A stretch of 35,397 nucleotides of DNA from assembly GCF_049337375.1 (NCBI RefSeq), contig NZ_JBMPIV010000015.1. One strand, written 5' to 3'. Both the position numbers and the translations under genes were made by a program. Each line of letters opens with the position of its first letter. Within the stretch, counting starts at the first letter, position 1. Source of the stretch: Nannocystis pusilla. GTDB taxonomy: Bacteria > Myxococcota_A > Polyangia > Nannocystales > Nannocystaceae. The notes under the pieces were generated by a model. The model did no database searches. It saw only the letters and a program-made list of their open reading frames with translations, and was not told the origin of the DNA. Positions 3,331 through 33,435 of the stretch are shown here, piece after piece.

Positions 3331-3420
3331 GTGGCCGATCCTCCGCCGTGCGTGCGAAGGCGGGCAGTCGCTCGGGCGATGTGGTGATTGCGACGGCAGA
3401 GACCGCCGACAGGTGCGCTG

Positions 3421-4179
3421 TCAGAAGCGGCCGGTGAGGCTGACGAGGGCGCCGCGCGGGGTGGGGCTCATGCCGGCGGAGAAGCGGCGGCCGCGATCGT
3501 TGCGGTGGAGCAGCGGGACGAGGACGCCGATGGCGGCGCCGGCGACGGAGCCGAACAGGACGTCGGTCCAGAAGTGCTTGCCGGCCTCGACGCGCAGGAC
3601 GCCGGTGGTGGCGCCGAGGCCGACTGCGAGCAGCCAGGCCGGGACGGCGGCGCGGGCCCGCGGGTGACGCAGGGTGAAGAGGGTGGCCCAGGCGCTCATC
3701 ATGGCGAAGGCGGTCGAGGTGTGACCTGAATAAAAGGACAGGCGCGCCTCCTCGGCCTGGACGTCGCCGAGCTCGCTCTCGGGCTCGTAGCTGTAGGGCC
3801 GCGGGCGGCGGACGGCGTACTTGACGAGGTTGTTGAGGCCGACGTTGACGGCGAGGACCTCGAACAGGACGACCACGTCGCGGGCCCAGCCGGCGGCGGC
3901 GTGACGGTAGGAGCCGGGGGCGCGGCGGCCGGCGAGGAGGGTGTCGGCGAGGTCGGCGACGATCGGAGCGGCGATCGCGGTGTAGAGCAGGGCGTCGGAG
4001 GCGTGGGCGGCCGCGAGGCTCTCGTTGCCGAGGACGCGCCGATCGAGGCCGTTGATGTGGCTGCGATCGCAGGCCTGACAGCCGGACCACCGTATGTCGC
4101 GGGCCGCGAGATCGGTGCCTAGCCACATGACGAGGCCGAGGGCGATGACGGGGACGTCGACGGCCGGCCGCAGGCGCAT
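3421..4179 (-). CDS. PAP2-family phosphatase (six-TM membrane phosphatase); the ORF can be extended 5' to 4551/4575, which would add a signal-peptide-like segment and a Pro-rich linker encoded by the repeat cluster
   Basis: PAP2 motifs KYAVRRPRP, YSGHTS and GKHFWTDV; six predicted TM helices begin at MRLRPAVDVPVIALGLV. Confidence 0.7.
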   Translation of the reverse strand: MRLRPAVDVPVIALGLVMWLGTDLAARDIRWSGCQACDRSHINGLDRRVLGNESLAAAHASDALLYTAIAAPIVADLADTLLAGRRAPGSYRHAAAGWARDVVVLFEVLAVNVGLNNLVKYAVRRPRPYSYEPESELGDVQAEEARLSFYSGHTSTAFAMMSAWATLFTLRHPRARAAVPAWLLAVGLGATTGVLRVEAGKHFWTDVLFGSVAGAAIGVLVPLLHRNDRGRRFSAGMSPTPRGALVSLTGRF

Positions 4180-4255
4180 GAGGTGCGGCGGGAGGGCCGG
4201 CGGCGCGAGCGGGAGCGGCGGATCGGCGGCAGGGGTCGTGCGGGCAGGCGGCGGA

Positions 4256-4450
4256 TATGTCCCTTGGGACATGTCTTCAGGGGCGTTCGACGAGGGCGTG
4301 GGCGGAGCCGGGTCGGATGTCCCTGGGGACAGGTTGTCGGGGGCGGCCGGATCGGCTGTCCCCGAGGATGTGCGGTCGAGAGGGGACGGCGGAACAGGTG
4401 AGGGTGTCCTCTCGGGCATGTCATCCGAGACATGTCCCGAGGGTCCGACC
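4256..4450. repeat. cluster of five copies of the palindromic repeat family (TGTCCCTTGGGACATGTC, TGTCCCTGGGGACAGGTTGTC, GCTGTCCCCGAGGATGTG, GGGTGTCCTCTCGGGCATGTCATCCGAGACATGTCCCGAGGGTCC) in the divergent PAP2/SUKH-gene intergenic region
   Basis: read directly from the sequence; a further half-copy TTTGGGGACAGGTG lies at 4605-4626. Confidence 0.8.
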
Positions 4451-4742
4451 AGCTGCCAGGCGTTCGGTCTGGAAGCGCGCGCCAGCGGGTGGGCGGCCGC
4501 GGGCGGGGCGGCGAGGGCGAGGACCAGGGCCAGAGACAGGCAGCGCGACATGCTCGGTCGGACGAGTATGCCCAATCGCAGGCCGGCGGCGCCGAGATCG
4601 GATGGCTTTGGGGACAGGTGAGTCGCGGGCTCGGCCGGAGGCGCGTCGATCGCGCTGTGTTGGCAGAGGACGTCCGGGTCGAGCCCGATGGACGCCCTGC
4701 TGGCAGAGGACCTCCGGGTCGGGCTACATTGGGCGTCCAGCG

Positions 4743-6062
4743 ATGCAGACCGGGACGTACGCGGAGCTCGAGGCGCGATTGACGGGGTTGGCGACGGCGG
4801 CCGCGGGCGGGGACGCGGAGGCGGCGCGATCGCTGACGCGCGAGCTGGAGGCGCTGGTCGAGGCGCCGGCGTGCCGCGAGGGCTGGCCGCGGCCCGGGAG
4901 CGTGGCGTTCAAAGCGTTCGATGTGTTCCTCGAGGCCGAGGGGGCCGAGCGATCGGCGACGCTGGGCCACCTCGCGGGGCCGTTCCTGCGGGCGATCGCG
5001 GCCCATCCGGAGACCCTCGGGGTGCCGCACGGCTTCCGGCCGGCGGCGACGCTGGGACCGTCGGCGATCCCGCTGCTGGTGGCGCTGCTGGACAGCGGGC
5101 TGCGACGGACGACGCGAGCGGCGATCGATGCGCTCGGCGAGTACAACCCGAACAACGAGGTCGGCTTCAAGCTGGCGGGCGAGGCGGTGAGCCGCTTGCT
5201 GGCGTACGCGGACGGCGAGGCGGTCGCGGCCGGGTTGATGAAGATCGAGTGGAACGACGAGCGGCTGTGGCTGCTGTTCCGCGTGCTGGCGGACGGCAAC
5301 TCGCTGGACCCGGCGAACCGCGGGCCGGCGACCGCGGTGGCGCTGGCGCGGCTGGTGGCGGCGACTGCGAGGATCACGGGTTCGGGGGCGGACAGGCTGC
5401 GAGCGCTGCTGCTGCGGGCGAAGATCATCCCGAAGGCGATGGCGCCGGGGATCGTGCTGGCGAGGTTGCCGAAGCAGCTGCCGCACACTGTGGCGGAGGC
5501 GCTGGCGTTGATGACCGCGTGGGAGCTGAGGCCCGCCGAGGTGGAGGCGAAGGGACCGGCGCGGGAGCGCGAGATCGAGGCGCTGGCGAAGCACGTGAGC
5601 GCCCGGATGCCGCAGGAATTGAGGCAATTGCTGGCGACGCACGCGGCGCTCGGGTCGCGCGACTTCGGGCCGCCGGCGCGCATGCGCCAGCTGTTCCACG
5701 AAATGGTGGGGACGATCGAGGACGACGAGGAGGAGGCCGACGACCCGCCGAGCGGCCGCGGGCGCTACGACGTGCGTGGCTTCGATCCGGCGAAGAAGGC
5801 GATCCCGCTGGGCAGCGATCCGTCCGGCGACCTGTTCTTCCTGGCGACGGGGGCGAAGTCGGAGGCGAACGCGGCGCCGGTGATCCGCTACCGCCACGAT
5901 CAGGCGCTGGTGGCCACGATCGCGGCCGACTCGCTCGGCGAGTACGTGGCGCTGATCCTGGCCCGCGCGTACGCCCGCCGCGAGGGGCTCGAGGCGCAGC
6001 TCGACAAGCTCGAGGGGCGCAAGCGGACGATCGTGTCAGGCTACAAGCCGCCGAAGCGATGA
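4743..6062 (+). CDS. hypothetical protein with C-terminal SMI1/KNR4 (SUKH-1)-like domain
   Basis: ATG at 4743 (M163 of ORF 4257..6062; the upstream part is repeat-encoded junk); C-terminus …AIPLGSDPSGDLFFLATG…PVIRYRHDQALVATIAADSLGEYVALIL matches the SUKH-1 pattern from memory. Confidence 0.6.
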   Translation: MQTGTYAELEARLTGLATAAAGGDAEAARSLTRELEALVEAPACREGWPRPGSVAFKAFDVFLEAEGAERSATLGHLAGPFLRAIAAHPETLGVPHGFRPAATLGPSAIPLLVALLDSGLRRTTRAAIDALGEYNPNNEVGFKLAGEAVSRLLAYADGEAVAAGLMKIEWNDERLWLLFRVLADGNSLDPANRGPATAVALARLVAATARITGSGADRLRALLLRAKIIPKAMAPGIVLARLPKQLPHTVAEALALMTAWELRPAEVEAKGPAREREIEALAKHVSARMPQELRQLLATHAALGSRDFGPPARMRQLFHEMVGTIEDDEEEADDPPSGRGRYDVRGFDPAKKAIPLGSDPSGDLFFLATGAKSEANAAPVIRYRHDQALVATIAADSLGEYVALILARAYARREGLEAQLDKLEGRKRTIVSGYKPPKR

Positions 6063-15000: not shown

Positions 15001-16134
15001 ATGCGATTGTCGACAGTGATCCTCGGTTGGTTGGCGCTATCCACGGTGCACACGATCGGTTGCGCGAAGGCGGCGGTCGCCAGTCCGGACGCGACGCCGC
15101 CGACCTCCGGCGGGCCGCAGATGGCCGTGCCGAAGGCGCCGCCGCCGAGAGGACCGGACGGGCCGATCACCGCGGCGGAGCGCGAGGAGGCGGTCGAGGC
15201 GCTGGCGCGCGAGCTGACGGCGAAGTACGTGTTCCCGGACAAGGCGAACGAGGTGGCCAGGGTGATCCGCGCCCGCCGCAAGCGCGGCGAGTACGACAAG
15301 ATCACGACGGGCCACGCGCTGGCGACGACGCTGACGAACGACATCAACGAGGTGCTGCGTGACGCGCACTTCCACGTCCGCTTCAGCAAGGAGACGCTGC
15401 CGCCGCAGCAGACCGAGGGGAAGCCGTCGGCCGAGGAGCTGGCCCGCTTCGAGGACTTCTCGCGCCGCATGAACGGAGGGTTCGAGAAGGTCGAGCGGCT
15501 GCCCGGCAACATCGGCTACCTGGAAGTCCGCGGGTTCGCCTTCCCCGGCCGCGGGTTCGAGGCGGCGTCGGCGGCGATGGCGTTCCTGGCGGAGACCGAC
15601 GCGCTGATCGTCGACCTCCGCCGCAACGGGGGCGGGTCGCCGGAGATGGTGGCGTACCTGTGCAGCTATCTGTTCGACGAGCGGGTCCACCTGAACGACC
15701 TGTACTTTCGGCCAGCCAACGAGACGCGCCAGTTCTGGACGGCGCCGGTGCCGGGCAAGTCCTACGTGGGCCGCGAGGTCTACGTGCTGACGAGCCCGCG
15801 CACCGGCTCGGCGGCGGAGGAGTTCGCGTACAACCTGAAGAACCTGGGGCGGGCGACGATCGTCGGCGAGGTGACGTGGGGCGGGGCAAACCCGGGCGAT
15901 ATGGTGCGCCTCGGCGACCACTTCAGGGCGTTCGTGCCGACGGGCCGGGCGATAAACCCGATCTCGAAGACGAACTGGGAGGGGGTGGGCGTGCAACCCG
16001 ACATCGCAGTGCCGGCCGAGGACGCGCTGCGGGTGGTCCAGGTCAAGCTGATCGAGCAGCAGATCGCCAAGGCGACGGACCCGGAGCTGAAGGCGGAGCT
16101 GGAGGAGCGGCTCCGCGAGCTGCAGCCGAAGTGA
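15001..16134 (+). CDS. S41-family (tail-specific/IRBP-type) peptidase lipoprotein
   Basis: AAGGAGGTGA Shine-Dalgarno before ATG 15001; lipobox HTIGCAK; motifs LIVDLRRNGGG and TGSAAEEFAYNLK. Confidence 0.85.
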   Translation: MRLSTVILGWLALSTVHTIGCAKAAVASPDATPPTSGGPQMAVPKAPPPRGPDGPITAAEREEAVEALARELTAKYVFPDKANEVARVIRARRKRGEYDKITTGHALATTLTNDINEVLRDAHFHVRFSKETLPPQQTEGKPSAEELARFEDFSRRMNGGFEKVERLPGNIGYLEVRGFAFPGRGFEAASAAMAFLAETDALIVDLRRNGGGSPEMVAYLCSYLFDERVHLNDLYFRPANETRQFWTAPVPGKSYVGREVYVLTSPRTGSAAEEFAYNLKNLGRATIVGEVTWGGANPGDMVRLGDHFRAFVPTGRAINPISKTNWEGVGVQPDIAVPAEDALRVVQVKLIEQQIAKATDPELKAELEERLRELQPK

Positions 16135-16148
16135 GGCGCGGCAGGGCG

Positions 16149-16388
16149 GGAGGACATGTCCGAGAGGACCTGTCTCGTGCGTGCGGAGGTCCGTGGGGAC
16201 ATGTCCTCTCGGACACTCCCGAGGGGACATGGCGGAGCGTCCGCGCGGCGCGCCCGTGCCGGCGCCGCGGGGAGGCGGTCTTTCGGGACATGTCCTTGCA
16301 GACATTTCCGCTGAGCTGGCGTCGGAGCGGCGCTCTCGTGGCCAGTTTTGTGTGTGGTGGTATTTGGGGACATGTCCTATCGGACGTG
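16149..16388. repeat. four repeat-family copies in the convergent intergenic gap between the S41 peptidase and SDR genes
   Basis: GGGAGGACATGTCCGAGAGGACCTGTCTCG; GGGGACATGTCCTCTCGGACACTCCCGAGGGGACATGGCGG; CGGGACATGTCCTTGCAGACATTTC; TTTTGTGTGTGGTGGTATTTGGGGACATGTCCTATCGGACGTGG. Confidence 0.85.
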
Positions 16389-16423
16389 GCCGACGAGACA
16401 GCAGGTTGGCGTCGGAGCGGCGC

Positions 16424-18420: not shown

Positions 18421-20316
18421 CTAGGAGGCGGGGACGGGCTCGGCCCCGAGGTCGCGGGCGAGGTCGGCGAGCTCGCCGATCGGGACCTGCAGCGCGGGCA
18501 GACGGGTGATGTCGGCCCGCGCGGCCTGGGCGATCGACTCGCTGGCGCGCATGATGAGGCCGCCGTTGGCGTCGGCGACGACGGTGTAGCCGGCCTTGCG
18601 CAGGCGGGCGAGCCGGGCCTGGGCGGCGGGGGTGAGGTCGGTGGCGGTGATGCGCAGGGATGGCACGCGGCCGGGCCAGAGGGCGGCGAGGTAGGCGGTG
18701 ATCCGCGGCGGGTAGACGACGCCGCCGGCTGTCTTTTCGTTCAGGTGGACGTCGACCAGCGCGGGGTAGCCGTGCACGTCGCAGCGGACCGCCCCGTGCA
18801 AGTGGCTGGTCCACATCGCCTCGGGGCTGACGGGCGCGGGCCACAGGCGGTCGAACCACGCGGCGATGGCGTCGTAGCTGGGGAGGCGCTGGCCGCCGAG
18901 CGCGTCGCCCAGGCGCTGGACCTCGGCGCCGAACCGCTCGCCGCGCTCCTCCCGGCGCAGGCGCAGGAGGATGGCGAGGACGGCGATGGCGATGGCGGCG
19001 TACCACAGGCCGAACAGCAGCAGCCCGCCGCAGACGATGGCGGCGAACAGGAGGCCGAGGCCGCCGTCGCGGACCTGTTGCTGGCGCCGCTCGTCGGCGT
19101 GGCGCGCCAGGAGGGCGCGGCGAGCGACCGCGAGGGCGCTGGCGGGGATCCGGCCCTCCGGCTCGGGGCCGGCGAGGTCGGGGCGATCGGGGAGGAAGGA
19201 GCGGACGGCGGCGATCAGGTCCCGGGTCGCGGGCGAGGCGGGGCTGTCGGCGGGCTCGCGCACCGCGGCGACCACCAGCGGCGCCTCGGCCAGACCGCCG
19301 GGCGGGGCCGCCAGCCCCGCCGTGGCCGAGGGGGTGCTGAGGCTGGCGCCGGAGCGGTTGGAGAGGATCGCCAGGAGCGAGGAGTTCGACGGGCTCATCG
19401 CGGCGCCCGGGAGGGTGTCGCTGGCGGCCGTCCGCGCGGCCGGGTCGCGGGCGAGGCTGGCCCCGAGGCCAGGTGCCTGCTCGCGCGGGGCGGGCAAGGG
19501 GCCGGACAGCGCGGCGGGGTCGAAGCCGGGAGCGACCGCGGTGCGGAGGCCCGGCGCGGCGGGTGAGCTGTCTGCAGGGACAGGTGATGAGGAGGCGCGG
19601 AGGGCGGCGAGGTGGCTGTCCGAAGGGACAGATGATGGCCGGCTGTCCGTGGGGACAGGCGGGGATCGCGTGGCCGCGGGGTCGAGGTCATGGCTGTCCG
19701 TGGGGACAGGCGGCCGGTGGCTGTCCGCAAGGGCAGGTTGATGGAGGCTGTCCGCAAGGACAGGCGCATCGACGGGCAGGGACAGCTGGGCCGGCTCCGG
19801 CGCGGCGTCGTGCCCGTGGGCGGCCAGGCCCGCGGCCGGCTCGGCCGACAGGGGGCCGGGGCGGGCGTCGGCCCAGCGGCCGGGGCGGGGGCCCTGCAGG
19901 GTGTCGCCGGGCTCGGGGGCGGCGAGCGGAGCGTTGCTGTCTCTCAGGACAGGTCGCAGGGGAGCCGGGACGGCGGGCGGCGGGGCCGGGCCGATCGAGA
20001 GCAGGGTGGTCGGCGGGACGGGCGCGGCGAGCAGCCTGGCCGAGGGCCCGGGCTGGTGGCGCGCGTGGAGCCGCGGGCTCGGCGGCGGGGCCTTGGCGTC
20101 GGGTTCGGGGCTGACCTTCGGGACAGGTGCGCTGTGGACCAGGTCGCTGACGGCCTGCTGGATCGCCCGCTCGTAGAGGGCCAGAGCGTCGGCGACGGCC
20201 GGCGGCAAGCCGTGGGGCTGCCGGCAGGCGGGGCAGTCGGCGGCGTCGCGGAGGTCGGCGAGCGAGAGCGCGTGCTGGCAATGCGGGCAGCGCAACGCGA
20301 GCGTCGGAGAGAGCAC
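18421..20316 (-). CDS. membrane-anchored protein: N-terminal zinc ribbon (CPHCQ…CPAC), long Pro-rich linker containing a six-unit repeat array, one TM helix, C-terminal globular domain of unknown function; 5' end uncertain (GTG 20316 or TTG 20295; the ORF opens at 20754)
   Basis: C-terminal ~220 aa non-repetitive and protein-like (…FDRLWPAPVSPEAMWTSHLHGAVRCDVHGYPALVDVHLNEK…); 4-nt gap to the downstream gene suggests an operon. Confidence 0.5.
   Translation of the reverse strand: MLSPTLALRCPHCQHALSLADLRDAADCPACRQPHGLPPAVADALALYERAIQQAVSDLVHSAPVPKVSPEPDAKAPPPSPRLHARHQPGPSARLLAAPVPPTTLLSIGPAPPPAVPAPLRPVLRDSNAPLAAPEPGDTLQGPRPGRWADARPGPLSAEPAAGLAAHGHDAAPEPAQLSLPVDAPVLADSLHQPALADSHRPPVPTDSHDLDPAATRSPPVPTDSRPSSVPSDSHLAALRASSSPVPADSSPAAPGLRTAVAPGFDPAALSGPLPAPREQAPGLGASLARDPAARTAASDTLPGAAMSPSNSSLLAILSNRSGASLSTPSATAGLAAPPGGLAEAPLVVAAVREPADSPASPATRDLIAAVRSFLPDRPDLAGPEPEGRIPASALAVARRALLARHADERRQQQVRDGGLGLLFAAIVCGGLLLFGLWYAAIAIAVLAILLRLRREERGERFGAEVQRLGDALGGQRLPSYDAIAAWFDRLWPAPVSPEAMWTSHLHGAVRCDVHGYPALVDVHLNEKTAGGVVYPPRITAYLAALWPGRVPSLRITATDLTPAAQARLARLRKAGYTVVADANGGLIMRASESIAQAARADITRLPALQVPIGELADLARDLGAEPVPAS
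19568..19770. repeat. array of six GCTGTCCGNNGGGACAGG(T/C)G units with irregular 27-51 bp spacing, encoding PVPTDS(H/R)-type peptide repeats in the linker of the 18421..20316 protein; more copies at 19935-19955 and 20108-20140
   Basis: read directly from the sequence. Confidence 0.8.
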
Positions 20317-20692
20317 GGCGGGACCATACCGCAGAACACGGGCGGCGGACCGGCCTGCGGGCGCGGGCGTGGGCGCGCAGGCGGAGGGGGCGGGCCGGGA
20401 GCGACGACGGCGGGTGTCGGCGGCGAGATCGCCGAGCGGGCTCGTCGGTGGCGACGGTCCCGAGCGCGGTCGAGATCGCGGCGGGGCGCGTGACGAGATC
20501 GACAGGGTCGGGCGGTGAGGTCGGTCCGCGAGGCGGGACGCAGTTCGTGGGTGGGGAGCCGGTAGCGGCGCCGTGCGGCCGGGACCGCGGAGCGGTGACG
20601 GGGCGGCGCCGGGCGCGGGCGAGGATGCGCGCGGCGGCGACTCGCGGTATGAGGAGGCGCCGCGCGCGACCGGCGGGCGGCGAGCTTTTACC

Positions 20693-23404
20693 GTGCCCGA
20701 TCTGCCCGTCTCGCCTCCTTCGCCCCGCGGCCTCGATCTCCCCGGCGCCGCCACTCAATTCGCGCCGCTCGTCGACGAGCGGCTGGCCAACGGCGCCCGC
20801 CTGCTGATCCTGCCCGGGCGACCGGCCGGGGCCGGGCCGGCGGCGGTGCAGCTGTGGGTCGGCTCGGGCACGGCGGCCGAGCGAGAGGACGAGCACGGCT
20901 GCGCCCACCTGCTCGAGCACATGCTCTTCAAGCCATGTGTTTTGGGACATGGCCCGAAGAGCAACCGCGCGCGCCTGGCTGCGGCCGGGGTGCGGCGGGC
21001 CGAGGAGGCGTTCGACCTGGCGGGCGCGATCGAGGCGCTCGGCGGCGACATCAACGCGTTCACCAGCCACGACGAGACGGTGGTCCACGTGACTACGCCG
21101 GCGGCCCGCGCGGCCGAGGCGGCGGCGCTGGTGGCCACCGCGACGCTGTTCCCGACGCTCGACCCGGCCACGCTGGGGCAGGAGCGCGAGGTGGTGATCG
21201 AGGAGATCAAGCAGTACGACGACGATCCGGGCCAGCGGGTGACGCAGGCGGCGCTGTCGCGGGTGTACGGGGCGCACGCGTACGCGCGGCCGGTGCTCGG
21301 CCTGGCGGAGGAGGTCGCGGGGCACTCGGCGGCGCGGCTGCGCGGGTATCACCGGCGGGCCTACGCCGGCGAGCGGCTGACTCTGGTGGCGGTCGGCGCG
21401 GTCGACGTGGCGGCGCTGCGCAAGGTGGCGCGGGCGATCGTCGGCGCGCTGCCGGCGGCCAAGAGGCGCGCGACGGCGGGCGAGCCGGCGGCGAAGCCGG
21501 GGGTGACGCTGCGCCGCGCCGAGGTCCAGGAGACCTACGCGCTGCTGGCCTGGCCGGCCCCGGCGGCGGGCGCGGCCGAGGCGGCGGCGATCGACGCGGC
21601 GGCGGTGGTGCTCGGCAACGGCGAGTCGTCGCGCCTGGTCGCCGAGACACGTCGCAAAGAACAGGTCGTCTCGGACATCCAGGCCCACTGCGACACGCTG
21701 CGCCACGGCGGGACGGTGATGGTGTCGGCGCGCACGACCGCGGGCCAGACGGCGGCGGCGGTGGCGGCGGTGCTGGCCCAGGTGCGGCGGCTGGCGGACG
21801 CGCCGGTGTCGGCCGAGGAGCTGGCGCGGGCCAAGGCGATCCTCGAGAGCGACCTGGTGTACCGGCGCGAGACGGTGCAGGGCCAGGCCCACGCGCTCGG
21901 GGCCTGCGCGACGCTGTTCGGCGACCTGGCCCGCGAGCGCGAGTACTACGCGGCCCTGGCGGCGCTGACGCCCGAGGCGGTCCGCTCGGCCTGCGCGCGC
22001 TGGCTCGACCCGGCGCGCGCGAGCGTCAGCCTCGAGCTGCCGCGCGCGGAGGTGGATGTCCAAACGGCCAGGTCGATCAAGGCCGCGGTGGCCGAGGCGC
22101 TGAAGCCGGCGCCGACGCCGGGGCGCGCCGGGGCGACGCCGCGCCGGGCCAGCGACGGGATCGAGACGGTGACCCTGGCGTGCGGGCTGCGCCTGCTGGC
22201 GCGGGTCGAGCCGGCGGTGCCGGTGGCGGCGGGCTGGCTGATCTGGCCGGGCGGGCTGCGGCGCGAGCCGGCGGCGCTGGCCGGCGCGAACTCGGTGATC
22301 GCGGCGCTGCTGACCCGCGGCAACGCCCGCACCGGCGGCGAGGCGCTGAGCCGGGCGATCGACGGGATGGCCGCGGGGCTCGACGGCTTCGCCGGCCGCA
22401 ACAGCCTGGGCCTGCACTTCGAGTGCCTGAGCCGCCACTTCCCGGCGGTGCTCGGGCACGCGCTCGACTGCGCGACGACACCGAAGTTCGCGGCCGACGA
22501 GCTCGAGGAGGAGCGGCGGGTGGCGCTGCAAGATCTGGCGGCCGAGGTCGACGACCCGGGCGCGGTGGCCAGCCGCGGGCTCAACGCGCTGCTGTACGGC
22601 GAGCACCCGTTCAGCCGCCCGGGCCGCGGCACGCCGGCCGGCCTGCGGGCGCTGACGCCGGCCAAGCTGCGGGGGCTGTGGCGCCGCGACTACCCGATCG
22701 GGCAGGCGGTGCTGGCCCTGGCCGGCGACATCGACGTCGCGGCGGCGGCGGCTCAGGTCGAGGCGGCGCTGCGCGAGGCTGGCCTCGGGGACAGGCTGTC
22801 TGAAGGGCCAGGTGCGCCGAAGAAGTTCGCGGCGCCGACCGGGCCGCGCGAGCGCGAGATCTTCCAGGACCGCGAGCAGGCCCACATCGCCCTCGGCTGG
22901 CCGGGCATCGCCGTGGGCGACGAGCGCGAGCCGACCCTCGACGTGCTCAGCGCGGTGCTCGGCGGCCAGACCGGGCGGCTGTTCACGGCGCTGCGCGAGG
23001 TCCAGGGGCTGGTGTACGAGGTGTCGATGAGCAGCGTCGAGGGCCTCGACGCCGGCCACGTGGCGATCCACGCGTCGACGAGCCAGGACAAGCTGCCGAA
23101 GGCGATGGCCGCGATCGCGGCGGAGGTCGAGCGCGCGGTGCGAGAGCCGCCGTCGGCGGCGGAGGTCGAGCGCGCCAAGGCGTGGCTGGTCGGCCAGTTC
23201 GAGCTCGGCCAGCAGCGCCGCAGCCGGATGGCGTCGCTGCTGGCGCTGTCCGAGGTCTACGGGCTGCCGCGCGCGCGCGCGTTCGCGTACCCGCAGCGGG
23301 TCGCGGCGGTGACCGCCGAGGGGGTGTGGGCGCTGGCGAGGACGCTGTTCCGCCCGCAACGCGCGGCCCGCTGCGTGGTCCGGGCGCGCCGGCGCAAGGG
23401 CTGA
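20693..23404 (+). CDS. two-unit M16-family (pitrilysin-like) zinc metallopeptidase carrying an 18-aa in-frame insertion right after the HxxEH motif
   Basis: HLLEHMLFK…DINAFTSHDETVVHV plus second M16 unit; GTG 20693 start is an inference (the ORF opens at 20573). Confidence 0.75.
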   Translation: MPDLPVSPPSPRGLDLPGAATQFAPLVDERLANGARLLILPGRPAGAGPAAVQLWVGSGTAAEREDEHGCAHLLEHMLFKPCVLGHGPKSNRARLAAAGVRRAEEAFDLAGAIEALGGDINAFTSHDETVVHVTTPAARAAEAAALVATATLFPTLDPATLGQEREVVIEEIKQYDDDPGQRVTQAALSRVYGAHAYARPVLGLAEEVAGHSAARLRGYHRRAYAGERLTLVAVGAVDVAALRKVARAIVGALPAAKRRATAGEPAAKPGVTLRRAEVQETYALLAWPAPAAGAAEAAAIDAAAVVLGNGESSRLVAETRRKEQVVSDIQAHCDTLRHGGTVMVSARTTAGQTAAAVAAVLAQVRRLADAPVSAEELARAKAILESDLVYRRETVQGQAHALGACATLFGDLAREREYYAALAALTPEAVRSACARWLDPARASVSLELPRAEVDVQTARSIKAAVAEALKPAPTPGRAGATPRRASDGIETVTLACGLRLLARVEPAVPVAAGWLIWPGGLRREPAALAGANSVIAALLTRGNARTGGEALSRAIDGMAAGLDGFAGRNSLGLHFECLSRHFPAVLGHALDCATTPKFAADELEEERRVALQDLAAEVDDPGAVASRGLNALLYGEHPFSRPGRGTPAGLRALTPAKLRGLWRRDYPIGQAVLALAGDIDVAAAAAQVEAALREAGLGDRLSEGPGAPKKFAAPTGPREREIFQDREQAHIALGWPGIAVGDEREPTLDVLSAVLGGQTGRLFTALREVQGLVYEVSMSSVEGLDAGHVAIHASTSQDKLPKAMAAIAAEVERAVREPPSAAEVERAKAWLVGQFELGQQRRSRMASLLALSEVYGLPRARAFAYPQRVAAVTAEGVWALARTLFRPQRAARCVVRARRRKG
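20924..20977 (+). repeat. 54-bp element-derived in-frame insertion (CCATGTGTTTTGGGACATGGCCCGAAGAGC…) encoding PCVLGHGPKSNRARLAAA inside the M16 peptidase
   Basis: compared with the canonical HxxEHMxFKGT spacing recalled from MPP-beta and pitrilysin; atypical codons tgt gtt ttg gga cat. Confidence 0.6.
22787..22816. repeat. repeat-family copy (GGGGACAGGCTGTCTGAAGGGCCAGGTGCG) in-frame in the M16 inter-unit linker
   Basis: read directly from the sequence. Confidence 0.55.
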
Positions 23405-23429
23405 GCCCCTGTTCTCCGCGACAGGTCGA

Positions 23430-23459
23430 GAGTGACATGTCCCCGGGGACATGTCACTC
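23430..23459. repeat. perfect 30-bp palindrome GAGTGACATGTCCCC|GGGGACATGTCACTC built from the repeat core, filling the convergent gap between the M16 gene and the next gene
   Basis: reverse complement equals itself, checked base by base. Confidence 0.9.
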
Positions 23460-23468
23460 GGGCCATGG

Positions 23469-24379: not shown

Positions 24380-24523
24380 GCGCGAGGACTGTAGCGCTTG
24401 TCGCGGCCGGGGCGGAGCGCGGCGAAGCAGAGGCCGTGGCGCTCGTCGCAGCGGGGACGCGCGGGCCGAAGCAGAGGCTGGGGCGCTTGTCGCGGCTGGG
24501 GCAGACGTGCTGAAGTGGCGTCG

Positions 24524-25963: not shown

Positions 25964-26210
25964 TGAGTGGCGAGAACGTGGCGGAACGCCTGGCCTGCAG
26001 GCGCTGGCGTCGATCAGCAGCGATGCGCGTGGACGCGCGGGCGCCGGAGCGTTGTGGCGGGGACCACACGGATCTGCTCCAGGTTCTGGGTGGGCGAAGT
26101 CGCGCAAGGTCGATCCCCGCAGGCGATCAAGCCGTTCGCGTCGGGACGAGTCGCGCCACGAAGGCGCTCGCGCGCCCGGGTGAGGCTGGGCGTCGGCCTC
26201 GCGTGTCTGC

Positions 26211-26332
26211 GAGGACATGCGCGCGAGGACATGCGCGCGAGGACATGCGCGCCAGGGCATGCGCGAGGACATGCGCGCGAGGACATGCGCGCGAGGACAT
26301 GCGCGCGAGGACATGTCCGAGAGGACATGCCC
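26211..26332. repeat. microsatellite-like tandem array, about nine units of GAGGACATGCGCGC (14 bp), ending in GAGGACATGTCCGAGAGGACATGCCC. An expansion of the repeat-family half-site
   Basis: read directly from the sequence; lies just 3' of the stop at 26347. Confidence 0.9.
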
Positions 26333-26346
26333 TCGGAGCCAGCGGC

Positions 26347-28128
26347 TCAGGCGGCGGAGGCGACGCCGAGGGTGCGGGCGAGGGCGCGGGCGACCGCGAG
26401 GGGGCGGCCCTTGAACACGCGGACGTACGGGATGGCGCTGGCCCGGGCGGCGCGGGCGAGGATCCCGTCGATGTTGTGGGCCTGGAAGCCGGTGGCGATG
26501 AGCACGTAGTCGTAGCTGTGGCGCGAGATGCTCTCGCACTGGGCCTGGACCTTGCGGGCGTTGCCGTCGCACCAGGTGATGTCGAGGCCGAGCGACTCCT
26601 CGAGCTTCGACTTGAGGTCGGGGTCCTCGCGGTTGCTGACGAACAGGACCCGCTTGCCCTCGACCTTGGGCCGGACCTGGGCGACCAGGTGCGCGCCCGG
26701 ATCGTCGACGTCGTCGGTCTCTTCCTCGAGGTCGCTGTCGCTGTCGGACGGCAGCACGCCGAGCTCGCCGCGCTTGATCACGTCCTGCAGGCCGGTGAGG
26801 CGGCGACGCATGCGGCGGTCCTCGAACAGGTCGGGGCGCAGGGCGTCGATGCGCGGGCGGATCGGCTGGACCAGCGACGCGACCTCGGGCGTGTTGTGGG
26901 CGTCGAAGGCCCGGCCGAGGAAGGCGAGCAGGGCCTCGTCGTCGAAGCTGTCGGCGGCGACCAGGGCGTCGCGTTCGGCTCGCACCGCCGCTTGCTGCTG
27001 GCGGACCTGATCGGCCGAGGGCCCGGTCTTGGCGCGCTCGGGCGGCGGGATGAACTCGGGGTCGAGCCAGCGGCGCAGCTGCGGCAGGCGCTCGCCGAGG
27101 CGCCCCGCGAGCCAGCGCAGGCGGCCCATGACGGCGCCCCAGGTCTCGGGGTCCTCGGCGGCGATGAAGCGACGGATGTCGCGCAGCGCCTGGGCGTGCT
27201 TGACGAGCGCGTCGAGCTGCTCGTTCGGCAGCTCCTCCGGCGGCGTGGTCAGGTGGCGCGGCGGCGGGTCGGTGACGTTGCCGGCGATGGCCTCGACGGC
27301 GCGCTGGGCCTCGCGCAGGAGGGCGCGCGGCTGGCCCGGCGGGGCCTTGCGCGGGCGGTCGGCCCAGCCGTAGTCGTCGACCGGGACCTCGCTGGTCATC
27401 GCGCGCTCGCGATGGTTCTGCACGAACTCGTGCGCCTCGGCCCAGGTCTTCGGCGCGTGCAGCGTCTTCAGCCCGAGCTCGGTGACCACGCACGCGGGCA
27501 CCGCGTTCATCTGCAGCGCCTGCACCGAGCCGGGCCACAAGGTCTTGCTGAGGTTCGTCAGCTCGTGGGCGATCCGCCGCACCAGCACGGTGATCTTGTG
27601 CTCGCCCTGGAACTGCTCGTCGAAGCTGCGCGCGCGGGAGATCCACGCCAGCATGTAGACCTTCTGATAGCGCGGCGACATCAGCGCGAAGTCGGGCCGC
27701 ATGTCCTGGATGTCCTTGAGGATCTCTTCCAGGGTCTCACGCGCCTCGGCGACCGCAGCAGCGGGATAAGTCGGTAGCTGGATCCGGCCGACGATCGGGC
27801 TGCGCGGTAGCTCGGGCTGCTCGGGCGCGGCGGGCGGGGCGGTGGGGATAACTTCGGGGGATACTGCGGCGCTGGGTGGCGCCGCCTGCGGACGGGCTGG
27901 CTCCTGGAGGCCGTCGCGGAAGCGATCGAAGAGTTGACGCGCGGCCGCCGACGGAAACATCTGCGTCAGCGCATCTTCGAGGGCGCTGTCACGATCGGGT
28001 CCGCGGCCGAGCCACCGCTCCGTGTCGCGCCAGATCAGCACCTCGGTCCACTGATGGGTATACATCGCGTGGCGGTAGCCGCTGTCCGCGAGAAACTTGG
28101 GTAGCCAGCGCGCGCCGTCGTCGTGCAT
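26347..28128 (-). CDS. hypothetical protein (593 aa); acidic linker and conserved-looking C-terminal domain
   Basis: long non-repetitive ORF with typical codon usage; lies 180 bp downstream of FabG on the same strand. Confidence 0.55.
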   Translation of the reverse strand: MHDDGARWLPKFLADSGYRHAMYTHQWTEVLIWRDTERWLGRGPDRDSALEDALTQMFPSAAARQLFDRFRDGLQEPARPQAAPPSAAVSPEVIPTAPPAAPEQPELPRSPIVGRIQLPTYPAAAVAEARETLEEILKDIQDMRPDFALMSPRYQKVYMLAWISRARSFDEQFQGEHKITVLVRRIAHELTNLSKTLWPGSVQALQMNAVPACVVTELGLKTLHAPKTWAEAHEFVQNHRERAMTSEVPVDDYGWADRPRKAPPGQPRALLREAQRAVEAIAGNVTDPPPRHLTTPPEELPNEQLDALVKHAQALRDIRRFIAAEDPETWGAVMGRLRWLAGRLGERLPQLRRWLDPEFIPPPERAKTGPSADQVRQQQAAVRAERDALVAADSFDDEALLAFLGRAFDAHNTPEVASLVQPIRPRIDALRPDLFEDRRMRRRLTGLQDVIKRGELGVLPSDSDSDLEEETDDVDDPGAHLVAQVRPKVEGKRVLFVSNREDPDLKSKLEESLGLDITWCDGNARKVQAQCESISRHSYDYVLIATGFQAHNIDGILARAARASAIPYVRVFKGRPLAVARALARTLGVASAA

Positions 28129-29257: not shown

Positions 29258-29545
29258 ATGACAGAGACCGCGCCGCCCGAAGCCCTGGTCCGCGAGATCA
29301 AGGAGCTCATCATCGAGGCCCTGATGCTGCAGGACATGACCCCCGAGGACATCGACCCGGAGGCGCCGCTTCTGGTCGAGGGGCTGGGCCTCGACTCGAT
29401 CGACGTGCTCGAGCTGGCGATGGCCATCGGCAAGAAGTACGGCGTCAAGACCCGCGCCGACGACGCCCAGAACCGACACATCTTCGCCAGCGTGACCAAC
29501 CTGGCCCGCTTCGTCGCCGAACAGCGCGCGCCGGCGGCGAGCTGA
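29258..29545 (+). CDS. acyl carrier protein
   Basis: GLDSID phosphopantetheine-attachment motif; 95 aa. Confidence 0.85.
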   Translation: MTETAPPEALVREIKELIIEALMLQDMTPEDIDPEAPLLVEGLGLDSIDVLELAMAIGKKYGVKTRADDAQNRHIFASVTNLARFVAEQRAPAAS

Positions 29546-29553
29546 GGCCCGAC

Positions 29554-30204
29554 ATGGCGGACCCGAACGGCGAGCCGCGGCGAGCCGCGGGGGTCCCCAG
29601 GTGGGTGCCCGCGGTGCTGCGGTCGGTGGTGATCGGCGGCTATCCGCTGGTCGTGTACCTCGGCATGACGCGCTGGAGCCCGCGCACCCTGGCGCTGGTG
29701 CTGGCGGTGGCGCTGCTCCCGGGGCTTCTGCTGCGCCTGCGCGAGGCCCGGCGCGAGGACCTGTGGCCGGTGCTGCGGGTGCCGCTGTCGCTGTTCGGGC
29801 TGTTCGCGGCGGCGGCGCTGTCGGGCGAGCAGCGGCTGTTCATGGCCCTGCCGGTGCTGGTCAACCTGGGCCTCTTGGCCAACTTCGCCGCCAGCCTGCG
29901 CGGGCCGGTGTCGCTGGTCGAACGGTTCGCACGCCTGCAGGAGCCCGACCTGCCGCCCGGCGGGCCGGCGTACTGCCGCACCTGGACCAAGATCTGGTGC
30001 GGTTTCTTCGTCGCCAACGCGGCCGTCAGCGCCGGCCTGGCGCTGTGGGCCCCGGTGGCCTGGTGGACGCTCTACACCGGACTTTTGGCCTACCTGCTGA
30101 TCGGGGTAATGTTCACCGTCGAGTTCGTCGTCCGCAAGGCGACCTTCCGTCGCTTCGGCGACGGGCTGCCCGACCGCCTGCTCCGCCGACTGCTCCGCGC
30201 ATGA
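29554..30204 (+). CDS. integral membrane protein of the lipid cluster
   Basis: multiple TM helices; stop overlaps the next start (ATGA at 30201-30204). Confidence 0.65.
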   Translation: MADPNGEPRRAAGVPRWVPAVLRSVVIGGYPLVVYLGMTRWSPRTLALVLAVALLPGLLLRLREARREDLWPVLRVPLSLFGLFAAAALSGEQRLFMALPVLVNLGLLANFAASLRGPVSLVERFARLQEPDLPPGGPAYCRTWTKIWCGFFVANAAVSAGLALWAPVAWWTLYTGLLAYLLIGVMFTVEFVVRKATFRRFGDGLPDRLLRRLLRA

Positions 30205-32255
30205 AGTCGTTCGCCCCGCTCGTCCACACCGATCCCGCGGCGCTCGTCGCCGTGGGCGAGGCCGGCGCGCGCACGGCCGGCGAGCTCATGCGCGACGCGA
30301 GGGCCGTCGCGGCGCGGCTGCCGGCGCCGATGCCGGGGAGCGAGGTGCTGGTGGTGTGCGGCGACCGCTACCACCTGGCGGTGACGACCCTGGCGGCGTG
30401 GCTGCGCGGCCACGCGGTCGCGCTGCCGCCCAACGCCCAGCCGGCGGCCGTGCGCGAGCTGGCCGGGCGGCCGTCGGTGGTCGCGCTGCTGCACGACTCC
30501 GACCTGGCCGACGCGCAGGACGTCCGCGAGTGGCTGGAAGGACATGTTTCAGGGGACATGGCCGATCCGACATGGCCCGAAGCGCTGGCGCCCGATCGCC
30601 GGCTGGCGGTCGTGTACACCTCGGGCAGCACCGGCGATCACCAGCCGTGCGCCAAGACGGCCGCGCAGCTGCTCGGCGAGGCGCAGGCGCTGGCGGCCAC
30701 GTTCGCCCTGCGGGCCGGCGAGGTGGCGCTGGCGACGGTGCCGCCGTACCACCTCTACGGGCTGCTGTTCGGGATCCTGGCGCCGCTGGCTGCGGGGGCG
30801 GCGTTCGCCCGCGAGACGCCGCTGCACGCCGAGACGGTGGCCCGGGCGGCGCGGCAGGTGGAGGCGACGGTGCTGGTCAGCACGCCGGCGCACCTGCGCG
30901 GGCTGACGGTGCTGACGCGCGGCGACCTGCCGCCGCTGTCGCGGGTGTTCTCGTCGGGCGCGCCGCTGCCGCGGGCCACCGCCGACGAGCTGCTGACCAA
31001 GCTGGGCCTGCAGGTGACCGAGGTGTACGGCTCGTCGGAGACCGGCGGGATCGGCTGGCGGCGGCACGAGGATGTTTTAAAAGACATGTCCCCGGAGCCA
31101 GCCTGGACGCCGCTGCCGGGAGTGACGGTCGAGGTGGCGGCCGAGGGGCGGCTGCTGCTGCGCTCGCCGTTCTTGGCCCCGGACGCGCCGGTGCCGTACC
31201 CGTGCGAGGATCGCGTCGAGGTCGACGCGCGCGGCGGGTTCCACCTGCGCGGGCGGCTCGACGGGGTGGTGAAGATCGCCGGCAAGCGGGTGGCGGTGGC
31301 CGAGGTCGAGCAGCGCCTGCTGGCGCTGGCGGCGGTGGCCGACGCCGCGGTGGTGGCGGTCGAGTCGCCGGGCGCGCGCGGGCACGAGCTGGTGGCCGCC
31401 GTGGTGGCGCGCGAGGCCGGGCGCGACGCCGCCGAGCTGGTGGCCGAGCTGCGGCGGGCGCTGCTGCCGTGGTTCGACCCGGTGGTGGTGCCGCGGCGGA
31501 TCAAGGTGGTGCCGGCGCTGCCGCGCGAGCCGAGCGGCAAGCTGACGCGGCGCAAGCTGCACGCGCTGCTCGGGCTCGCGGGCGAGGAGGAGAGTGCGTC
31601 GGGTGGCGCGAAGGACATGTCTGTGAGGACAGATGCCGACGCAGCGAGCGCGGGTCCGAGGCTCGGTGGCGCGAGGGACATGTCCGCGGGGACAGAGGCC
31701 GCACCAGAGCGCGGTGGCGCGAGGGACATGTCCGCGGGGACAGAGGCCGCACCGGAGCGAGGTGGCGCGAGGGACATGTCCGCGGGGACAGATGCCGATC
31801 CGGAGCGCGGTGGCGCGAGGGACATGTCCGCGGGGACAGAGGCCCATGGGGCGTCGTGGGGTGTCTCGCGAGACATGTCCGCGGGGACAGGTGGCGCGTC
31901 GGCGTTCGCGCTGGGCGGCCACGCGCGGCGCGACGAGGGCGGGGCGGCGGTGCACGAGGTCGAGGTGGGGGTGCCGGTCGACCTTGCGTTCTTCTGCGGG
32001 CACTTCGACGCGCTGCCGGTGCTGCCGGGGGTGGCGCAGCTGACCGCGCTGGTGGTGCCGCAAGTGGCGGCGCTGCGGCCGGAGCTGGGGCCGCTGAGGC
32101 GGGCGGCGCGGCTGAAGTTCACCCGGCCGATCGCGCCGGGCGACGCGCTGGTGCTGCGGCTCGAGGTCCGCGGGACTCAGGTCCGCTTCTCGTTGGCGCG
32201 GGCCGGCGAGGTGGTCACGGCGGGGGCGCTCGAGTACGAGGCGCGCGGAGGCTGA
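30201..32255 (+). CDS. AMP-dependent synthetase/ligase fused through a 5.5 x 16-aa repeat linker to a FabA/FabZ-like hotdog dehydratase domain
   Basis: YTSGSTG and GSSETGG AMP-binding motifs; FFCGHFDALPVLPGVAQL matches the hotdog dehydratase active-site motif; the true ATG at 30201 overlaps the upstream stop. Confidence 0.8.
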   Translation: MKSFAPLVHTDPAALVAVGEAGARTAGELMRDARAVAARLPAPMPGSEVLVVCGDRYHLAVTTLAAWLRGHAVALPPNAQPAAVRELAGRPSVVALLHDSDLADAQDVREWLEGHVSGDMADPTWPEALAPDRRLAVVYTSGSTGDHQPCAKTAAQLLGEAQALAATFALRAGEVALATVPPYHLYGLLFGILAPLAAGAAFARETPLHAETVARAARQVEATVLVSTPAHLRGLTVLTRGDLPPLSRVFSSGAPLPRATADELLTKLGLQVTEVYGSSETGGIGWRRHEDVLKDMSPEPAWTPLPGVTVEVAAEGRLLLRSPFLAPDAPVPYPCEDRVEVDARGGFHLRGRLDGVVKIAGKRVAVAEVEQRLLALAAVADAAVVAVESPGARGHELVAAVVAREAGRDAAELVAELRRALLPWFDPVVVPRRIKVVPALPREPSGKLTRRKLHALLGLAGEEESASGGAKDMSVRTDADAASAGPRLGGARDMSAGTEAAPERGGARDMSAGTEAAPERGGARDMSAGTDADPERGGARDMSAGTEAHGASWGVSRDMSAGTGGASAFALGGHARRDEGGAAVHEVEVGVPVDLAFFCGHFDALPVLPGVAQLTALVVPQVAALRPELGPLRRAARLKFTRPIAPGDALVLRLEVRGTQVRFSLARAGEVVTAGALEYEARGG
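30537..30584. repeat. repeat-family copy (GAAGGACATGTTTCAGGGGACATGGCCGATCCGACATGGCCCGAAGCG) in-frame in the ligase, encoding EGHVSGDMADPTWPEA just before the YTSGSTG motif; a second copy at 31071-31099 encodes DVLKDMSPEP
   Basis: atypical codons (gtt tca, aca, gaa, tta aaa). Confidence 0.7.
31603..31905. repeat. tandem array of about 5.5 units of 48 bp, each GGTGGCGCGAGGGACATGTCCGCGGGGACAGAGGCCGCACC(A/G)GAGCG(C/A), encoding (ERGGARDMSAGTEAAP)n between the ligase and dehydratase domains
   Basis: read directly from the sequence; not CRISPR-like because the units have no unique spacers. Confidence 0.9.
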
Positions 32256-33186: not shown

Positions 33187-33252
33187 GAGAGGACAGGTTC
33201 GATCGGCCATGGCTCATCAGGCAGGTGCGGGGGGACATGTCCCGGAGGACAA
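33187..33252. repeat. repeat copy (GAGAGGACAGGTTCGATCGGCCATGGCTCATCAGGCAGGTGCGGGGGGACATGTCCCGGAGGACAACC) between the GT2 and acyltransferase genes
   Basis: read directly from the sequence. Confidence 0.75.
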
Positions 33253-33263
33253 CCGGGCCGGGG

Positions 33264-33435
33264 CCGCGGCGGGCGAGCGCGGGGCGGGCGTGCCGGCGAC
33301 CGCCGCCGGGCAGGGGAGCGAGCGCGAGGCGGGCGGCGCCGCGGCGGGCGAGCGCGGGGCGGGCGTGCCGGCGACCACCGCGGGGCAGGGGAGCGAGCGC
33401 GAGGCGGGCGGCGCCGCGGCGGTCGAGGGCGACCG
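33264..33435. repeat. 75-bp tandem duplication (2.3 units) encoding (AAAGERGAGVPATAAGQGSEREAGG)n upstream of, or inside a 5' extension of, the acyltransferase gene
   Basis: read directly from the sequence. Confidence 0.85.

Follow-up and report, generated by a model that had tools for sequence, protein, structure and literature searches.

A genus-specific palindrome in the predicted linker of a Nannocystis pusilla PAP2-family phosphatase gene, and a probable promoter duplication at its divergent SUKH neighbor

Background

What are clustered short palindromes and a direct repeat doing at the start of two divergently transcribed genes? The question is raised by a locus of Nannocystis pusilla, lying in a stretch of 35,397 nucleotides (here called the window; G+C content, 72.5%) whose source is identified by a PAP2-family protein that matches P0001, a 376-aa N. 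pusilla entry at NCBI, with 100% identity. An initial annotation had treated 4256-4742 as intergenic throughout, and had proposed that its palindromes, if they are protein-binding sites, make it a candidate regulated promoter. The larger part of that region is in fact PAP2 coding sequence (4256-4551), as the NCBI gene model, an alignment of homologs and open frames in six orthologs agree, and the gap between the two divergent genes, PAP2 and SUKH, is confined to the 191 bp at 4552-4742. The reading that we favor, with a probability of roughly 0.7, is that the locus comprises a PAP2 linker with passenger copies of a palindrome whose niche elsewhere is at the 3' ends of genes and, separately, a 40-bp duplication of the SUKH promoter. 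The locus itself is, accordingly, ordinary: a translated linker plus a duplicated promoter. The palindrome, as will be seen, is less so.

Where does the PAP2 gene begin?

The PAP2-family phosphatase gene occupies 3421-4551 on the minus strand and specifies 376 aa from an ATG at 4551, an assignment based on Pfam, the NCBI model (which begins at this ATG) and orthologs. The PAP2 domain itself is not in doubt: the minus-strand ORF at 3421-4575 matches PF01569 with E=9.6e-23 (80.8 bits, vs a gathering cut-off of 27.2). The 5' segment, 4492-4551 on the minus strand (MSRCLSLALVLALAAPPAAA, then HP), encodes MSRCLSLALVLALAAPPAAAHP, a typical signal peptide with a conserved hydrophobic N-terminus whose first codon is the NCBI start and over which GC3 is back to 0.9; its cleavage site was placed by eye. 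Next comes a variable Pro/Ser/Ala-rich linker (4192-4491, minus strand), which bears the element copies, includes the peptide stretch EDMSQGTYPPPAR, and is open in orthologs of differing length. The succession of a hydrophobic N-terminus, a variable Pro/Ala-rich linker and a conserved PPHLMRLRPAVDVPVI core is common to the homologs with an intact N-terminus (alignment, n=14), and is also found in PAP2 homologs outside Nannocystis. In six Nannocystis orthologs the frame is open from the same ATG without an internal stop, the linkers varying so that the proteins range from 376 to 416 aa.

Codon usage tells the same strip of sequence apart from its surroundings. In the PAP2 frame GC3 is 0.9-1.0 over 3420-4230, approximately 0.7 over 4230-4440 and 0.9 over 4440-4560; it is high on both sides of the element array, in the same frame and on the same strand. 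PAP2 linkers have a GC3 of 0.80 vs 0.95 in the remainder of the gene, and certain codons are concentrated in them: GGA (12/35 in linkers vs 1/130 in the remainder), CAT (12/16 vs 0/45) and ACA (15/39 vs 0/82). Judged from sequence, 4192-4551 is translated as the predicted signal peptide and disordered Pro-rich linker of a membrane PAP2 phosphatase, with the start codon and the cleavage site placed by prediction.

As an alternative to its operators, the initial annotation had offered a long form of the PAP2 ORF, starting at 4575, that would translate the copies as a Pro-rich N-terminal linker. The translated linker is upheld; the TTG at 4575 gives way to the ATG at 4551. The NCBI model and all orthologs begin at ATG, and the TTG is further rejected because the distance between the ATG and a GGGCATACT block that is conserved upstream of it as DNA changes from species to species through indels whose lengths are not divisible by three. 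The block (4565-4573, minus strand) contains a -10-like CATACT, lies 13 nt before the PAP2 ATG and has a core without any variation among six aligned loci; loci L109 and L111 carry the block as well, and it would be a candidate PAP2 promoter.

One point that speaks against ATG 4551 is that gene callers start PAP2 beyond the signal peptide in three loci, L003, L005 and L109 (at 5001, 5001 and 2505, respectively). These models all begin at an ATG borne by the palindromic element (GACATGTCC) and thereby lose the conserved signal peptide. In L003 and L005 no stop interrupts the longer frame that starts at the conserved ATG, and the same was read by eye in L109. That the element carries an ATG thus accounts for the mis-started PAP2 models in 3/8 genomes.

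The palindromic copies at the PAP2 locus

The element copies that had been reported at 4256-4450 are really there. With one mismatch or less, GGACATGTCC has 22 matches in the window vs 0.83 expected, three of them at 4253, 4267 and 4428. Expressed as TGTCC-N4-GGACA units, the array consists of three with at most one core mismatch (4258-4271, 4318-4331 and 4405-4418), three more, identified by eye, with two mismatches in a 14-bp register (4357-4370, 4419-4432 and 4433-4446), and a half unit at 4272. The PAP2 ORF contains all of the recognizable copies at 4253-4446, at 105-300 nt from its start, and they can be read as peptide. The copy at 4253-4285 (TGTCC-CTTG-GGACA, flanked by GGATA and TGTCT) is read as PEDMSQGTY and the copy at 4318-4331 (TGTCC-CTGG-GGACA) as NLSPGT; the degenerate copy at 4357-4370 (TGTCC-CCGA-GGATG, two mismatches) yields TSSGT, and the second N. 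pusilla locus (L001) has no GGACA arm at the aligned site, the difference being one of substitutions and not of a gap. The three tandem units at 4405-4446, in 14-bp register, are read as GHVSDDMPERT and are the best-conserved copy across six orthologs.

These copies differ in their capacity to form hairpins. The triple unit (4398-4450) folds, as RNA, at -26.6 kcal/mol (z = -3.4); the other PAP2 copies are short and their hairpins weak (-7 to -9 kcal/mol), no different from those of shuffled sequences. The arms of the PAP2 copies are the best-conserved islands of a linker that can otherwise barely be aligned, in agreement with what is found for the arms genome-wide. Given the cross-species conservation of these arms and the strength of the hairpin at 4398-4450, the PAP2 copies may affect PAP2 expression; in the main they would be passengers with no role as operators.

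The true gap contains a single element-like copy, TGGCT-TTGG-GGACA, at 4603-4616 (two mismatches; repeat family D2), which is conserved in the window, L001 and L002 and altered in L003.

An element of defined geometry, restricted to one genus

The core of the element is TGTCC-N4-GGACA, and its full 24-mer is GGACATGTCC-N4-GGACATGTCC, often continued in a 14-bp register. The spacing is strict: at N4 the window has 38 matches with no more than one mismatch, vs at most one at any other spacing from N0 to N8, and in 852 kb of other Nannocystis DNA there are 239 exact matches at N4 vs at most three at each other spacing. In the same 852 kb, the back-to-back junction, GGACA followed by TGTCC, is equally specific, here to zero spacing. 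The logo is symmetric (RCM-TGTCC-BNNV-GGACA-KGY). With 38 copies in the 35-kb window, the element occurs approximately once per 1-2 kb. It is also confined to its lineage: a search of one genome from each of 185,579 species found the perfect 24-mer in 103 stretches, about three of them from outside Nannocystis/Nannocystaceae. Rfam yielded no family at gathering score over the whole window, and a literature search on Nannocystis repeats, on GGACATGTCC in bacteria and on myxobacterial REP sequences turned up no description of the element. The family appears to be undescribed, and to belong to the broad class of lineage-specific interspersed palindromes.

Several arrays of the element, and other repeats near it, were noted in the window. 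Plainly non-coding DNA carries it at 16150-16390 (behind the stop at 16134), at 23438 (between the convergent stops at 23404 and 23469) and at 26204-26330 (behind the stop at 26347). The convergent gap at 16135-16423 holds five copies, the last two of which are each followed by a 19-nt direct repeat, TGGCGTCGGAGCGGCGCTC (near 16318 and 16409), in a mosaic layout that recalls the NIMEs of Neisseria. At 23426-23463 a palindrome with a perfect 13-bp stem is built on the element (-23.4 kcal/mol, z = -4.7). A 14-nt-period array at 26209-26330, made up of 8.9 copies of GCGAGGACATGCGC behind a minus-strand gene (stop at 26347), ends in a full element (-23.9 kcal/mol) and resembles the element's 14-bp register in which one arm has decayed to TGCGC. 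A tandem repeat of 75-nt period (33254-33431; 2.4 copies, 94% identity) begins just past an element at 33233-33251. Other tandem repeats are found at 24394-24501 (44-nt period, 2.4 copies, 79% identity) and at 1045-1636, where 3.9 copies of a 150-nt unit at 79% identity (a 312-nt period was also scored) lie within a Cys-rich minus-strand ORF, 1042-2022, whose counterpart in other species is annotated DUF4215.

The element lies mainly behind genes and is mostly inherited in place

The positions of the element relative to genes were taken from maps made with a crude GC3-based caller, which recovered 5/6 of the complete L001 genes with the same stops, and missed PAP2. On these maps 78 of the 93 evaluable perfect 24-mers (~84%) fall within 150 nt after a predicted stop, 43 of the 78 between convergent stops, and only three of the 93 are in a coding core. 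Leaving out the 24-mers that served to fetch the loci, the density of the element is 3.0/kb in the 100 nt after stops, 0.21/kb in coding cores (a 14-fold difference) and 0.66/kb elsewhere. The main niche of the element would thus be the stretch of a few tens of nucleotides that follows a stop codon, the full-size copies forming strong hairpins there.

Evidence for such hairpins is specific to the full-size copies. In these, the first two facing bases beyond the conserved arms form a Watson-Crick pair 60% of the time (expected, 30%), and stems run up to nine pairs further, generating hairpins of 10-16 bp; folding energies are -23 to -24 kcal/mol for two examples (z = -4.7 and -5.6). Within the core, symmetric double substitutions are moderately more frequent than expected. 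Short copies display neither covariation nor compensatory change in their flanks, so that selection for a hairpin is supported only for the full-size copies; for the short ones, this lack of flank covariation fits a protein-binding site as well as it does a hairpin. G+C-rich hairpins directly after genes bring intrinsic terminators to mind. The oriented post-stop copies have no U-tract (the T fraction is 0.20 downstream vs 0.17 upstream), for which reason the element is not a canonical intrinsic terminator, and these same copies have no RNA tetraloop or oriented loop preference. Full-size copies may instead be sequence-defined 3'-end hairpins that help to form or protect the ends of transcripts, or sites recognized by a specific factor.

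A bolder version of this proposal can be entertained, tentatively: that the genus-specific 24-bp palindrome is a recognized signal at thousands of sites that also happens to write linker peptides (GHVPEDMS, DMSxGT, PVPxDS), and that it is either a factor-dependent terminator or 3'-end mark that does without a U-tract, or else an uptake or recombination signal maintained by drive. Were that so, the PAP2 array, placed as it is behind a signal peptide, could be an intragenic site of pausing or attenuation.

Might the element simply be mobile, a REP- or MITE-type repeat spread by a transposase such as a RAYT, with the PAP2 copies its insertions? A short, high-copy palindrome at 3' ends and in convergent gaps, arranged in arrays and limited to one genus, is what such a repeat would look like. 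What makes this origin unlikely is the comparison of orthologous sites and of sequence beyond the palindrome. Only one of 72 orthologous comparisons has a clean gap in one partner; most copies are either conserved in place or decayed by substitution, and must therefore have been largely inherited in place instead of recently inserted. Nor is there conserved sequence past approximately 24 bp or a GTAG-type head in the logos. Between species, orthologous sites retain 89-95% identity in the arms, vs 62-63% in the 4-nt center and 63-65% in the flanks. The arms would be kept by selection or drive that acts on DNA or RNA and not on peptide, a point to which the copies inside genes speak below.

The direct repeat before the SUKH gene

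The repeat on the SUKH side of the gap is unrelated to the palindromic element and has to be accounted for separately. The gene that it precedes, 4743-6062 on the plus strand, encodes a putative SUKH (SMI1/KNR4-like) protein of 439 aa, assigned by Pfam and by its orthologs: SMI1_KNR4 (PF09346) scores E=7e-5 and 23.9 bits, just under the gathering cut-off of 25.4, homologs P0127, P0128 and P0130 carry the SMI1/KNR4 domain, and one ortholog is named SMI1/KNR4. The orthologs (439-444 aa), some of which bear an SMI1/KNR4 annotation, share the same ATGCAGACC start. GC3 in the SUKH frame rises only from about 4710; longer forms starting at ATG 4257 or 4602 were considered and rejected, as GC3 is 0.53-0.63 upstream of 4700 and the orthologs start at MQT.

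That there is a direct repeat upstream of the SUKH ATG is borne out: TGGCAGAGGACSTCCGGGTCG is found at 4661-4681 and 4701-4721 (two matches vs 0.01 expected), and neither elsewhere in the window nor in the first five loci. Between the two 21-nt cores there is a single base difference; taken over 32 nt the repeat is 84% identical, and over units of 40 nt it matches at 30/40 positions (75%). The distal unit, A (4653-4692, plus strand, delimited by repeat search and alignment), has a -10-like hexamer decayed to CCGATG; the proximal unit, B (4693-4732, plus strand, delimited by alignment), comprises a candidate -35 (CTGGCAG), a spacer and a -10-like TACATT at 4725-4730. The claim that GGACGTCC, within the repeat, is a relative of the core of the palindromic element does not hold: its two matches in the window are no excess over the 1.72 expected, its geometry differs, the second copy of the repeat reads GGACCTCC in its place, and it is absent from the N. 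bainbridge ortholog.

Comparing strains gives the repeat a simple history. The gap is 145 bp in L001, the second N. pusilla, and the window differs from it by one exact 40-nt insertion; the one unit of L001 matches B at 34/40 positions and A at 32/40. N. bainbridge likewise has a single unit (without GGACGTCC), and N. radixulma, N. punicea and two metagenome relatives are without the repeat motif. What is retained throughout is the hexamer: each of the seven SUKH loci has a TAnnnT, in the forms TACATT, TAGATT, TACCTT, TAACCT and TACCGT, 10-12 nt upstream of its conserved ATGCAGACC. The insertion relative to L001, the hexamer in the proximal unit, the CTGGCAG at -35 distance from it and the decay of the distal hexamer together lead us to interpret the repeat as a promoter duplication. 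It is probably a strain-specific, 40-bp tandem duplication of the putative SUKH core promoter that has brought no new function. (A technical note: a consensus scan of 4200-4800 found no sigma-70 site and no terminator, so that the -10-like blocks of the locus are candidates by virtue of cross-species conservation only.) Conserved -10-like blocks are situated 10-13 nt before both ATGs of the divergent pair (4563-4573 and 4725-4730), and neither ATG is preceded by a Shine-Dalgarno sequence; this suggests that the PAP2 and SUKH mRNAs are leaderless, or nearly so.

One can ask whether the two 21-nt repeats are instead paired sites, 40 bp apart on the same face of the helix, for a regulator that controls SUKH. 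The spacing, close to four helical turns, is right for this, the repeats overlap the -35 and spacer of the likely promoter, and their cores have stayed one base apart while the 40-nt units as a whole are only 75% identical. We nevertheless find such paired sites doubtful: the sister N. pusilla strain and N. bainbridge make do with one copy, N. radixulma and N. punicea have not conserved the motif, further copies are missing from the window and the first five loci, and a different tandem duplication has arisen in the same gap of a metagenome relative. The latter, at 2700-2815 of L111, arose independently, repeats in tandem the region around the PAP2 start (GACGGCGCGACATCCGGGTCCG...) and suggests that the gap is prone to duplication. 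A metagenome scan with the repeat unit yielded 120 single-copy matches, none followed by a SUKH start; they are, for that reason, unrelated GC-rich 20-mers, and uninformative about the duplication.

Element copies in coding sequence

Returning to the palindrome: about a quarter of its clusters (93/399) are embedded in open frames, and the 114 embedded units make use of the frames very unequally. The DMSxGT frame (xTG-TCC...GGG-ACA) accounts for 62 and the (P)VPxD frame (GTC-C..G-GAC) for 47, with five in the frame that encodes Cys; in the PAP2 linker both of the favored frames stand side by side (GHVSDDMPERT). Shorter copies would thus be tolerated in protein linkers, in two frames that avoid cysteine.

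The window contains two further in-frame arrays. One, at 31602-31889, has a 48-nt period (3.8 copies, 94% identity) and encodes GGARDMSAGTEAAPER; it constitutes the linker exactly between the AMP-binding_C and FabA/ApeI-like dehydratase domains of ORF 29496-32255, and may be a former intergenic array captured by gene fusion. The other, at 19569-19762, has a 27-nt period and six element copies that are read in the other frame, as PVPTDS, in a minus-strand ORF, 18421-20754, without a Pfam domain.

Is the peptide, then, what matters, and the DNA palindrome a by-product of motifs (GHVPEDMS, DMSxGT) that the PAP2 linker needs? The motifs do recur in all Nannocystis PAP2 linkers and in the linkers of other proteins, and the 27- and 48-nt array periods are multiples of three. 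Even so, we regard a peptide requirement as very improbable: the same DNA occurs in non-coding regions (including the array of 14-nt period), its two frames specify unrelated peptides, it imposes rare codons ending in A or T, which have been kept from species to species despite a genomic GC3 of 95%, and the motif is missing from the linkers of PAP2 homologs outside Nannocystis. Its presence in non-coding DNA, its use of two reading frames and its rare codons make the element a DNA-level feature and not a peptide motif.

The operators originally proposed for a regulated divergent promoter at 4256-4742 fare no better, and are most unlikely: conserved half-sites about a free 4-bp center, short copies without flank covariation, and a degenerate copy (4603-4616) that is conserved in four species some 50 bp upstream of the putative PAP2 start, do have the look of sites for a dimeric DNA-binding regulator, whereas 6/7 copies lie within the PAP2 ORF, downstream of its start, and genome-wide the element is too frequent (about one per 1-2 kb) and in the wrong places (after stops and in linkers) for a gene-specific operator.

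Comparison with known repeat systems

The REP sequences and BIMEs of enterobacteria and pseudomonads are short, high-copy, hairpin-capable palindromes located after stops and between convergent genes, and restricted to lineages. The Nannocystis element shares with them the 3'-end and convergent niche, the high copy number, the hairpin-capable palindrome and the lineage restriction; it departs from them in its defined arms of 5-10 nt, free 4-nt center and 14-bp array register, in the lack of a GTAG-like head in its logos, and in having about a quarter of its clusters in-frame inside ORFs. The DNA uptake sequences of Neisseria (DUS) and Haemophilus (USS) are asymmetric words that also work singly. 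Like them, the element is present about once per kb and as inverted pairs behind genes, is kept across species, and in genes is limited to tolerated frames and weakly constrained parts of proteins; unlike them, it is a palindrome with a strict N4 spacing, whose half-site matters only in the inverted N4 arrangement. Its presence in coding sequence, the absence of a GTAG-type head and its being a strict palindrome and not an asymmetric word mean that the element has the defining features of neither REP/BIME nor uptake sequences.

Other resemblances are more partial. Rickettsia palindromic elements (RPE) are clear insertions of approximately 100-150 bp that lie in-frame in genes and add peptide segments to proteins. 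The element resembles them as a palindromic repeat found in-frame in protein-coding genes, and differs in its units of 14-24 bp, which are mostly extragenic and, in the orthologous comparisons made here, mostly conserved in place. The dRS3 and NIME repeats of Neisseria have fixed inverted hexamers around a variable core and are assembled into mosaic arrays, dRS3 being a phage integration target; fixed inverted arms, a variable core and arrays are features in common with dRS3, while sequence and spacing differ. Cyanobacterial HIP1, an uninterrupted 8-mer linked to a methyltransferase, is likewise a highly iterated palindrome of coding and non-coding DNA, again with a different sequence and spacing.

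Implications

For the locus, the outcome is the removal of a false lead: there is no promoter packed with operators here. For annotation, two cautions follow. Low-GC3 islands within Nannocystis ORFs are not to be taken as non-coding, and the start-calling error seen in PAP2 is likely wherever the element occupies an N-terminal linker. For the genus, there remains a sequence-defined palindrome, its arms conserved and its loop free, behind approximately a fifth to a third of genes: a handle on transcript ends, or on the marks of gene ends, in a high-GC myxobacterium with a 12-13-Mb genome that does without canonical U-tract terminators at these sites.
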